DNA of 64,000 nucleotides from Candidatus Pelearchaeum maunauluense (GTDB taxonomy: Archaea > Thermoproteota > Nitrososphaeria_A > Caldarchaeales > Caldarchaeaceae). Shown here in pieces: positions 10,327 through 12,011 of the stretch. A model generated the notes under the pieces. It did not search any database. It was not told the DNA's origin and was given only the letters and a program-made list of their open reading frames with translations. Numbering within the stretch: the stretch's first letter is position 1; each line of letters starts with the position of its first letter. The stretch is from NCBI GenBank assembly GCA_030059675.1, contig JANVYQ010000004.1, positions 64,001 to 128,000 of the forward strand, given 5' to 3'. The position numbers were made by a program, and so were the translations under genes.

Positions 10327-11601
10327 TTGTTTGAGGAGGAGTATAAGCGGCGGTATGTATTCGGCGCCGACTATGGGACTAGCGACTTTAAGTACGGCCC
10401 CATAACGCAGGGAGAGAAGCCACTCGTCGTTGAGAATCGCGGCTATTTTCCAGAGCCATCTATTGTAGCGAGCATACTGGGCACTGTCAGGGAGGTGGTC
10501 GTCGGTAAGGATGTGCCGCTCTTCCTTGAGAGTGGCGCAGACCTTGCCACGCGGCTGGTCTATCCAATGAGGAGCGGGACTATTGCTAAAGATGATTCCC
10601 GCTCGTGGAGGGTGATTAAGGAGCTTACGCTTATGGCTCTAAAGGAGTTTAGGCCAGGAGGCTTCGGCTTCAGAGGCTTCTACCTGGTGGCAGCCCTCTC
10701 AGCCATAGCCCCGCGCTACATGTATGAGACGCTCTTCGAGATTTATCGCGAGATAGCGCGTGAGGATAACTTGATTCACTCAGCCACAATCATACCACAG
10801 CCCCTCGCCGTTGCGATTGCCCATAAGACTACCTCCTGCGTTGTTGTTGAGAGTGGACATGGGAATACGCAGGTTGCCCCAATATCACGCGCCCCTATTA
10901 GGGGCGCTGTTGTCGCGCTCAACAGGGGTGGGAGCGAAGCCAACGCCATAACCGCTGAGATACTTAAAGACGCTGGTTATGGCGACCTAGCGCGCGAGGA
11001 AGCGCTTGTACGACGGGTAAAGGAGAACCTAGGGCTCCTCCCACTAGACCTAGACCGCGCAATCTCATACGCCAAGTCAAACCCAGAAGCGGTAAGAGCG
11101 GTCTATCAAGTTCCTGGCACTAGGATAAAGATAGACCTAGGAGAGAACTCTTGGGCCAGGTTCCTGATAGGCGAATATGTCTTCGACCCTAATCACGAGT
11201 TGTTCCAGAGCTATTTTAGGCGTGGCATGCCTAGGCCGCGCGATGCTAAGGTTGGTGATATAGTGTTCTATGGGATGCTCAACCTGGCTGACACGATAAT
11301 CACCTCTATAGAGCGCTGCCCCGTGGAGCTTCAGCCCCACCTCTACGGGCAGGTCATCCTCTCTGGCGGGAACTTCTCGTGGAGGCCGCCAGAGGGCTTG
11401 AAGGGCATAGCGGTTGACGCCGAGACCAAGCTAAGCCGCATGCTACGCCAGCGCGGAGTGGAGAATGCTAAAGTCACGTTATCCCCAGAGCCTCAATACG
11501 CAGTATGGCGCGGCTGCATCGTCTTTGGGTACGCAGTACCAGCGAACTACCAGTGGAGTTGGGAGAGGATGGAAGGCTGGATAAACCTAACCAAAACATA
11601 G
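10327..11601 (+). CDS. Crenactin (archaeal actin)
   Basis: DYGTSDFKYG, YPMRSG, ESGHGNTQVAPI, ILSGG, YAVWRG. Confidence 0.92.
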   Translation: MFEEEYKRRYVFGADYGTSDFKYGPITQGEKPLVVENRGYFPEPSIVASILGTVREVVVGKDVPLFLESGADLATRLVYPMRSGTIAKDDSRSWRVIKELTLMALKEFRPGGFGFRGFYLVAALSAIAPRYMYETLFEIYREIAREDNLIHSATIIPQPLAVAIAHKTTSCVVVESGHGNTQVAPISRAPIRGAVVALNRGGSEANAITAEILKDAGYGDLAREEALVRRVKENLGLLPLDLDRAISYAKSNPEAVRAVYQVPGTRIKIDLGENSWARFLIGEYVFDPNHELFQSYFRRGMPRPRDAKVGDIVFYGMLNLADTIITSIERCPVELQPHLYGQVILSGGNFSWRPPEGLKGIAVDAETKLSRMLRQRGVENAKVTLSPEPQYAVWRGCIVFGYAVPANYQWSWERMEGWINLTKT

Positions 11602-11699
11602 CCGTTAGGGTCTCAAAGTGGTAAAGAAACTTCGAGCCCGCTGAACTGTGATGATTGGTGGACCGACAGAGCTTTCCCCACGGGGATACCCTAACGGCT
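11600..11699 (+). ncRNA. BHB-flanked structured RNA with C/D-like boxes; predicted 71-nt excised piece 11617-11687
   Basis: 11-bp outer helix AGCCGTTAGGG/CCCTAACGGCT, central TCTC/GGGG, bulges AAA and ATA, inner GTGG/CCAC; internal CTGA..GTGATGA. Confidence 0.65.
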
Positions 11700-11917
11700 G
11701 CGAAAATAAACTACTGCTCTTCTCTCTAATATTTCTTTTTATATCTAATGGTTTTAGGCTGTTTTCTTGGATGCTTCACATATCTGGAATCTTAACGCCT
11801 TGGCTATCCTAGGCATTGTTTGCGTTGTGTGGGCATCACAGCTTTATGAAAGTGCGTAAGGTATTTGGAGAGTATTAGTACGTAGCGATTGCCCGTTCTG
11901 GCATAGTCCGAAATATA

Positions 11918-12011
11918 TGCGGCCGGCGGGATTTGAACCCGCGACTTTGGGGCGTGCCCCTTCAGCTTGGGGTCGGGGCCCCCACGTCCTGCCTGGCTAG
12001 ACCACGGCCGC
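11918..12011 (-). tRNA. tRNA-Gly(CCC)-like gene with about 20 extra nt (intron 11954-11973 if at 37/38) and an aberrant anticodon loop
   Basis: Acceptor GCGGCCG/CGGCCGC-A, intact D and T arms, stem TGGGG/CCCCA; no U33 in any single-intron parse. Confidence 0.65.

Follow-up and report, generated by a model that had tools for sequence, protein, structure and literature searches.

A free-standing bulge-helix-bulge (BHB) motif that brackets a guide-like small RNA (sRNA) lies at the stop codon of the crenactin-like gene of Candidatus Pelearchaeum maunauluense. In the stretch of DNA analyzed here (the window; 64,000 nt, positions 64,001 to 128,000 of contig JANVYQ010000004.1), positions 11599–11700 of the + strand correspond to a canonical hBHBh′ motif around a 71-nt RNA with C/D-like boxes. 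As far as sequence comparison goes, it is the homology found elsewhere, and not the geometry, that establishes this element as real: homologues with matching architecture and D guide number 14, of which 3 were found in genomes that belong to the same order but to a different family, and 11 on metagenome contigs. The explanation toward which we lean, with some reserve, is that of a portable BHB-bracketed guide-RNA cassette processed by the tRNA-splicing endonuclease (EndA) and RtcB, the window holding a divergent copy placed on the 3′ untranslated region (UTR) of crenactin.

Structure of the Element

The outer helix of the element pairs 12 nt starting at the U of the UAG stop codon of crenactin (11599–11610) with positions 11689–11700. 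It consists of 11 Watson-Crick pairs (11600–11610 with 11689–11699), or 12 bp when U11599·G11700 is counted. It is followed by a central 4-bp helix, in which TCTC (11611–11614) pairs with GGGG (11682–11685) by means of two G·U pairs among others, and by an inner helix formed by GTGG (11618–11621) and CCAC (11678–11681); the 3′ strands of the inner and central helices are contiguous (11678–11685), and the inner helix is extended by AAAG (11623–11626) with CTTT (11672–11675). Two 3-nt bulges, AAA (11615–11617) and ATA (11686–11688), lie on opposite strands around the 4-bp helix, and helices h and h′ are present on both flanks (outer 12 bp, inner 4 bp), as expected of a BHB. According to the canonical BHB cleavage rule, the cuts are predicted between 11616 and 11617 and between 11687 and 11688, which would release a piece of 71 nt (11617–11687).

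The + strand of the element folds at −44.1 kcal/mol with RNAfold (z = −4.18; none of 200 shuffled sequences folded equally well), and the reverse strand folds more weakly (−38.9 kcal/mol). Only the + strand passes the BHB scan, because on the − strand the two G·U pairs turn into C·A. No tRNA is recognized at 11599–11700 by either ARAGORN or Rfam, and the element is therefore not tRNA-embedded.

Within the 71 nt, the order is GTAAAGA, a 13-nt spacer, CTGA, ACT, GTGATGA, a 12-nt spacer and CAGA. The first of these (11621–11627) is a degenerate C box, with G3 changed to A, that aligns with RUGAAGA of the homologues, and the last (11667–11670) is a degenerate D box that aligns with their CGGA. Between the C-like box and D′ lies the D′ guide-sized spacer AACTTCGAGCCCG (13 nt; 11628–11640), which varies among homologues. 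The boxes D′ CTGA (11641–11644) and C′ GTGATGA (11648–11654) are exact consensus sequences separated by 3 nt, and together they make up a kink-loop (K-loop) module (11641–11654). The D guide TTGGTGGACCGA (12 nt; 11655–11666) is identical in 11 of 12 nt in two of the homologous genomes, G068 and G051. The window copy thus has the internal D′/C′ pair with a short loop, and spacers of about 12 nt (13 and 12), that are expected of C/D RNAs.

Homologues and Covariation

Homologues were found by several searches. In a DNA search of 76 genomes of the class, the sRNA core had a 52-nt match at 81% in G068 (E = 1.1e-6) and a 32-nt match at 88% in G051 (E = 1.7e-4). In these two genomes, the outer helix (GGGCTGGTGAGG/CCCCACCAGCCC) has 12 bp including one A·C and differs in its letters from that of the window; the central helix is CCCT/GGGG, the bulges are AAA (or TAA) and AAG, and the inner helix is GGAGGGC/GCCCCC. 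The boxes are GTGAAGA (C), CTGA (D′), GTGATGA (C′), and CGGA (D), and the D′ guides are different from that of the window. A covariance model (R1), run on the 76 genomes, recovered the window's genome, G068 and G051, plus G071 (E = 3.3e-4), which agrees with G068 in the outer helix and in 45 nt of flank on the downstream side, and differs from it in boxes and guides. RUGAAGA/CGGA boxes are present in 13 of the 14 homologues, G071 being the exception. Among the 76 genomes, the outer-helix pattern of the G068 type is limited to G051, G068, and G071, with one occurrence in each; the element is present in a single copy in each of the four carrier genomes, and the window copy is a singleton for its outer-helix type.

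Metagenome contigs, when scanned with a pattern, yielded 35 loci. A second model (R2) identifies 11 of them as full members, which all belong to the G068 type (E = 7e-11 to 2e-23), and the remaining 24 have no match to this model. Below E = 0.3, R2 gave no additional matches in one family (f4, 35 genomes) or in another (f1, 18 genomes), the weak matches of the R2 searches being those in G075, G061, and G017 (E = 0.34–0.94); over a sample of 151 genomes of the phylum, it returned the window's own element only. The same kind of pattern scan gave 16 loci in GTDB genomes, 2 of them known archaeal and 14 bacterial, a total that by rough calculation is close to the chance expectation, and 3 pattern-only matches in viral contigs, where the outer-helix motif was not found. 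Some weak matches of R1 were discarded. Those at L044, L045, L047, and L048 (E = 0.19–0.64 genome-wide) have broken helices and are not members, and that at L046:1501–1556 (−), in G065, was rejected as a family member because it lacks the BHB. The latter, a plain C/D sRNA closed by a terminal stem of 4 bp, has a 16-nt D′-spacer-C′ stretch in common with the G068 cassette, and hence is a BHB-less relative in the same genus.

Conservation of the paired structure was analyzed in a model-fitted alignment of 15 sequences (14 distinct; 276 pair cells). Standard pairs occupy 94.6% of the cells, the central helix is paired in 100% across the 14 distinct sequences, and the 5′ bulge has 3 nt in 15 of the 15 aligned members. 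In seven pairs both sides have changed (four in the outer helix, two in the central and one in the inner), so that in this model-fitted alignment, and from three lineages, the BHB is seen to be kept up by compensatory changes. As a control, when the 3′ partner was slid by 1–3 columns, 38.5–62.1% of the cells were paired and at most one both-sided change appeared. In addition, when 9 of the 15 sequences were aligned with MAFFT, without fitting to the model, RNAalifold again yielded the outer helix, together with the greater part of the core.

The original prediction for this DNA is right on the architecture and the probable processing. It had described a free-standing BHB without tRNA exons enclosing a C/D-type guide-like RNA, a geometry that works on the + strand only, two guide-sized segments and a degenerate C box; every structural element that it listed lies at the positions given there, and the bulge-helix-bulge conservation that it proposed to look for is kept in the homologues with compensatory changes. 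It is wrong on two other points, the tie to crenactin and a tRNA T-arm as target, which are taken up below.

Two further features of the alignments can be mentioned. The 3′ arm of the outer helix is invariant in members of the G068 type, and their 5′ arm carries in each case exactly one A opposite C at position 9, 10 or 11 (alignment A9, columns 11–13). Moreover, in the RNAalifold model, segments of the D′ and D guides pair with each other (alignment A10, columns 38–43 with 67–72) in most members and with some covariation; this pairing, as modeled, may be incidental, or may reflect an autoinhibited fold of the precursor.

Genomic Context and Putative Source of the Precursor

The presence of the element beside crenactin is not a conserved trait. 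The original prediction tied it to this gene, as a 3′-UTR intron of an mRNA host, and suggested to look for its conservation downstream of crenactin in relatives. Crenactin orthologues are present in 29 of 41 related genomes (the window's genome counted); in none of the 28 other loci is the element found beside the gene, and the downstream sequences are unrelated. In the sister species (G001), whose crenactin is 97% identical and whose flanks are about 90% identical, a block of 316 nt (11602–11917) is missing according to the alignment of the two loci (L001 and L002). The conservation with a host gene that characterizes mRNA BHB introns is hence absent at these 28 loci and in the sister species, and the homologues lie elsewhere: the G051 copy follows an HMGL-like gene, and that of G068 lies between an open reading frame (ORF) of 155 aa and a gene for an MFS transporter. 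No orthologous empty site could be defined for the G068 copy, since the intergenic regions are unalignable.

The upstream flanks of the homologues fall into about four groups, each with an A/T-rich, TATA-like box about 25–35 nt before the helix, and T-runs occur about 40 nt downstream of the helix. This arrangement fits small independent genes, with the box as a putative promoter. The window copy has no promoter-like box of its own, the ORF extending up to the helix. The simplest source of its precursor would be read-through from crenactin, because the end of the ORF, with its stop codon, meets the 5′ arm and the first T5 run lies downstream of the element, at 11736–11740 (+), where it is a candidate archaeal terminator of the crenactin/element transcript. 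The crenactin ORF itself would stay untouched, because the excision sites lie past the stop codon.

Processing Machinery

Enzymes for the processing of a BHB are encoded by the organism. Its genome has two EndA paralogues (tRNA_int_endo, 98.5 and 65.3 bits), whose genes lie at C16:3642–3899 and C10:9779–10036, and RtcB (575.9 bits), that is, both the endonuclease and the ligase that a BHB calls for, and it also encodes fibrillarin. Two-subunit endonucleases are described as those with the most relaxed BHB specificity, for which tRNA sequences are not needed (PMC4731332). The intron-bearing tRNA and rRNA genes of this genome, as judged by their sequences, suggest a busy BHB pathway. Many tRNA genes contain introns according to ARAGORN, several of them outside the anticodon loop (e.g., in the T arm of tRNA-Ala(UGC)), and some of the ARAGORN calls are spurious long "tRNAs." The 23S gene spans 4274 nt, as compared with 2987 positions of the model, and the 16S gene, divided between the ends of two contigs, is expanded as well, its 3′ part taking up 1386 nt against some 640 positions (C14:10397–14670, C10:57608–58376, and C18:5–1390 for the rRNA loci); these expansions are probably rRNA introns.

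Proposed Explanation and Rival Readings

What is established is the structure of the element, its conservation with covariation, the variety of its surroundings and the occurrence of the enzymes in the genome; its transcription, cleavage, circularization, assembly into a ribonucleoprotein (RNP), and target are inferred. In the proposed pathway, the folded precursor would offer both cleavage sites to the tRNA-splicing endonuclease by virtue of its outer helix (12 bp), its central helix (4 bp) and its pair of 3-nt bulges, and the enzyme would cut at 11616/11617 and 11687/11688. RtcB would then close the 71-nt piece into a circle and join the flanks to a 12-bp hairpin with a 7-nt loop. The circle, with its perfect C′/D′ K-loop, its degenerate C/D boxes and its two guide-sized spacers, would assemble with L7Ae, Nop5, and fibrillarin. 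As the processing signal is self-contained, the cassette would mature in any transcribed context; in relatives it would do so as a small gene of its own, and in the window as a 3′-UTR "intron" from crenactin read-through. The possibility that the ligated flanks (12-bp stem and 7-nt loop) yield a tRNA-like minihelix was considered and discarded, since the loops are unlike a T-loop.

Several observations weigh against this explanation. Regarding the motif itself, BHB-like geometry of this strength is expected by chance about one to two times per genome. In relatives, the 3′ bulge has 3 nt in 12 of the 14 members that reach it and 2 nt in G071 and L096. The compensatory changes are confined to three lineages (G000, G071, and L095), the alignment is a model-fitted one, and 11 of its 15 sequences were selected by a pattern requiring the C′ box and the D guide, so that the constancy of these two is partly by construction. 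The distribution is patchy as well: of the 76 genomes of the class, only 4 have the element, and in the sister species it is missing both at the locus and assembly-wide (the assembly being 93% complete). As for the C/D boxes, the window copy has GUAAAGA/CAGA in place of the terminal C RUGAUGA and D CUGA; the key G of the first sheared G·A pair of the C box is changed to A, which makes the pair A·A, and a 5-nt insertion, CUUUC, is able to pair with the remnant of the C box. For these two reasons the terminal kink-turn (K-turn) of the window copy is doubtful and, to judge from its sequence, may not form. The match to curated C/D families is below threshold (best Rfam hit sR1, 17 bits, E = 0.32, with a gathering score of 45), although these Rfam families are lineage-specific. 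Finally, the guide targets discussed below are candidates only.

By the rules for K-turns, RUGAAGA/CGGA is a variant in which A·G replaces U·U, and under these rules the terminal pair of the homologues is a plausible K-turn variant. GUGAAGA/CGGA is also present as the C′/D′ pair of the one canonical C/D sRNA in the window's genome.

How far the geometry of the motif alone can be trusted was addressed by a genome-wide hBHBh′ scan (both strands, 1.79 Mb, G·U allowed, enclosed length 12–400 nt), with at least six outer pairs, four central pairs and at least three inner pairs. Of 5443 loose matches, four, among them the window element, reach 11 or more Watson-Crick pairs in the outer helix, and three first-order Markov-shuffled genomes gave 0, 2, and 2 matches of this kind; with such numbers geometry alone is not significant genome-wide. 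One of the three other strong matches, a BHB-like motif at C15:35703–35790 (−) with a 14-bp outer helix, lies within an uninterrupted ORF of 308 aa and is taken as chance, and therefore calls based on the motif only demand caution. The window element is the only strong BHB match in the genome with a D′-spacer-C′ module, and no further BHB-flanked sRNAs that would form a family within this genome were found by the scan. A chance inverted repeat, or else a plain 3′ hairpin or terminator of the crenactin mRNA, would agree with these counts, with the real match inside an intact ORF and with the T5 run after the hairpin. Nevertheless, the element is homologous to 14 BHB-bracketed sRNAs in other contexts, its C′/D′ boxes are exact and canonically spaced, and it does not follow crenactin in the 28 other genomes; the chance or terminator reading is already disfavored by the homologues, and we consider it very improbable.

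Two other readings accept the homology and explain the window copy differently. One of them regards it as a decaying relic of the cassette that was acquired or retained in an unstable spot beside a tRNA gene, perhaps still excised but giving no working C/D RNP. The degenerate C GUAAAGA and D CAGA, as opposed to RUGAAGA/CGGA in 13 of the 14 homologues, are in line with decay, and so are the lack of a promoter-like box, the absence from the sister species and the singleton type of outer helix. On the other hand, the outer helix (11 Watson-Crick pairs and U·G), the central helix, the bulges and C′/D′ are intact and the D guide retains 11 of 12 nt, all of which random decay would not spare; we therefore regard the relic as unlikely. 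The other reading places the arms at the DNA level, as terminal inverted repeats of a mobile sRNA resembling a miniature inverted-repeat transposable element (MITE), with an ordinary linear C/D sRNA as the product, its ends trimmed by exonucleases, and with an incidental likeness to a BHB. There is a precedent in Pyrobaculum calidifontis, for which 15 copies with C/D-sRNA-like insides and conserved imperfect inverted repeats are reported (PMC6009581). In our material, the near-invariance of the G068-type outer helix, always with one A·C, while the D′ guide varies, would suit such an element, as would the patchy distribution and the indel at the window locus. However, a MITE-like element should occur in multiple dispersed copies and here, although inverted arms are present, there is one copy per genome in four genomes, with no proliferating repeat and no target-site duplication. 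Furthermore, DNA-level repeats leave unexplained why two unrelated arm sequences have an identical 12-bp/3-nt/4-bp/3-nt geometry with a covarying central helix, and the strand-specificity due to the G·U pairs is a feature of the RNA level. This reading appears to us even less probable than the relic, and it is the portable cassette processed by EndA and RtcB that we continue to prefer.

Candidate Guide Targets

The D guide can form 10 contiguous Watson-Crick pairs with nt 67–76 of tRNA-Ala(CGC/UGC), with the CCA added, and N+5 would then be U70. A run of 10 pairs was reached by 100 of 5000 shuffled D guides (p ~0.02). The 3′ end of tRNA-Ala, CCGGTCCA, is identical in G001, G051, G068, and G071. 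The D guide also makes 9 bp with one 23S site; a search for rRNA in four assemblies of relatives, where this candidate site could be compared, gave no match. For the D′ guide, no target above chance was found among rRNA and tRNA. The original prediction had proposed the T arm of a tRNA as target of this first guide, using one G·U pair. Such a pairing does exist, with nine Watson-Crick pairs, one G·U and two mismatches; nevertheless, it was rejected as a target, as 190 of 200 shuffled guides do equally well and the G·U falls at N+5.

A more far-reaching idea can be formulated by joining both parts, namely that a BHB cassette on any transcript, including the 3′ UTR of an mRNA, would give rise to a circular C/D-type RNA by means of EndA and RtcB, apart from the Rnl route, and that its D guide, conserved in the family, would pair with the 3′ strand of the acceptor and the CCA end of tRNA-Ala and direct methylation to U70 of the G3·U70 identity pair, thereby modifying or sensing the charging end. 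Taken as a whole, this would be a long shot. As a separate observation, a conserved G/C-rich hairpin-like stretch of the type GGGGCC-TCAAA-GCCCC lies directly 3′ of tRNA-Ala in G068 and G051 (L081, L083, and L085), and in G068 an encoded CCA precedes it.

Relation to Known Systems

Known BHB substrates comprise tRNA and rRNA introns, rRNA processing stems, the intron of the cbf5 mRNA, the 5′ UTR of HVO_1309, and a permuted signal recognition particle (SRP) RNA, according to two accounts of the field (PMC7714728; PMC4731332). Among them, the tRNA-Trp intron is the case in which a BHB is known to carry a C/D guide (PMC7994747; PMC7714728; PMC3326292). In that intron, as in the window, a C/D guide lies between the BHB bulges; there it is reported to be excised by the endonuclease, circularized and used to guide tRNA methylation (PMC7994747; PMC7714728; PMC3326292). 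The window element, in contrast, has no tRNA exons, is flanked only by the strands of a 12-bp helix, and is either free-standing or placed in the 3′ UTR of an mRNA. The cbf5 intron of Crenarchaeota and the 5′ UTR of Haloferax HVO_1309 are examples of BHBs in transcripts of protein genes that are described as cut by EndA with a circular product (PMC7714728); those are conserved with their hosts and carry no guide RNA, whereas the window element lies in a 3′ UTR and is not host-conserved. Another parallel is found in the permuted SRP RNA of Thermoproteus and in rRNA processing stems, in which RNAs other than tRNA are said to be circularized through a leader/trailer BHB by EndA and RtcB (PMC4731332); the cargo is different, and circularization of the SRP RNA restores a permuted gene.

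The elements of P. calidifontis resemble the present one in several ways: their insides are sRNA-like, conserved though imperfect inverted repeats flank the boxes, the guides vary and are orphans or aimed at tRNA, and the copies lie in unstable regions. They differ in their reported number of 15 copies per genome and in having canonical C/D with degenerate C′/D′ boxes (PMC6009581); here the copy is single, the box decay is the opposite and the BHB is exact. The term BHB does not occur in the main text of that article, whose Figure 5 and supplements may bear on whether the repeats form BHBs (PMC6009581). The same article describes sRNA genes of Pyrobaculum at ORF 3′ ends which start at or in the upstream stop codon and are presumably co-transcribed, the C box coinciding with the stop codon in 23 cases (PMC6009581). 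In this they are similar to the window element; those genes have no BHB, and here it is the outer helix, not the C box, that overlaps the stop codon. In the full-text literature searched, a scope that covers subscription papers only in part, we found no account of a C/D sRNA gene that stands free and is bracketed by a BHB.

Circular C/D box sRNAs of Pyrococcus, Thermococcus, Sulfolobus, and Methanopyrus share with the proposed pathway a circular guide RNA as the product. How archaeal C/D guide RNAs circularize is a long-standing question, which for Thermococcus has been answered with Rnl (PMC9014305); in T. kodakarensis, circularization is attributed to this ATP-dependent ligase and not to the RtcB route (PMC9014305). 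If the cassette explanation were true, there would be a second route to circular guide RNAs, and the tRNA-splicing machinery would act as a general module for the maturation and circularization of small RNAs. It would also provide a mechanism for the context-independent expression and the mobility of guide-RNA genes, and the case of the window would be an archaeal counterpart of the snoRNAs hosted by transcripts of protein genes.

Other Features of the Genome and of the Locus

The canonical C/D repertoire of the genome looks very small, or else divergent, as far as it can be recognized by pattern. The strict dual-guide C/D pattern occurs once in the genome and in none of three shuffles. Its sole locus, C9:100656–100707 (−), reads ATGATGA ... 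CGGA ... GTGAAGA ... CTGA.

At the window locus, the putative host transcript contains the actin-family (crenactin-like) ORF, which encodes 424 aa (10327–11601, +; Pfam Actin, E = 1.3e-14) and ends with the TAG at 11599–11601. The 316-nt block (11602–11917) that follows has no second copy in the window's genome, no direct repeat or target-site duplication was found around it, and the rest of it, away from the element, is not significantly structured (z = −1.06 and −0.64). Immediately beyond the block lies an intron-containing tRNA-Gly(CCC) gene, convergent with crenactin (11918–12011, −; Rfam tRNA, 50.2 bits), which is the sole ARAGORN tRNA call near the element. In the sister species (L002), the crenactin TAG abuts the 3′ end of a convergent tRNA-Gly with zero spacer.

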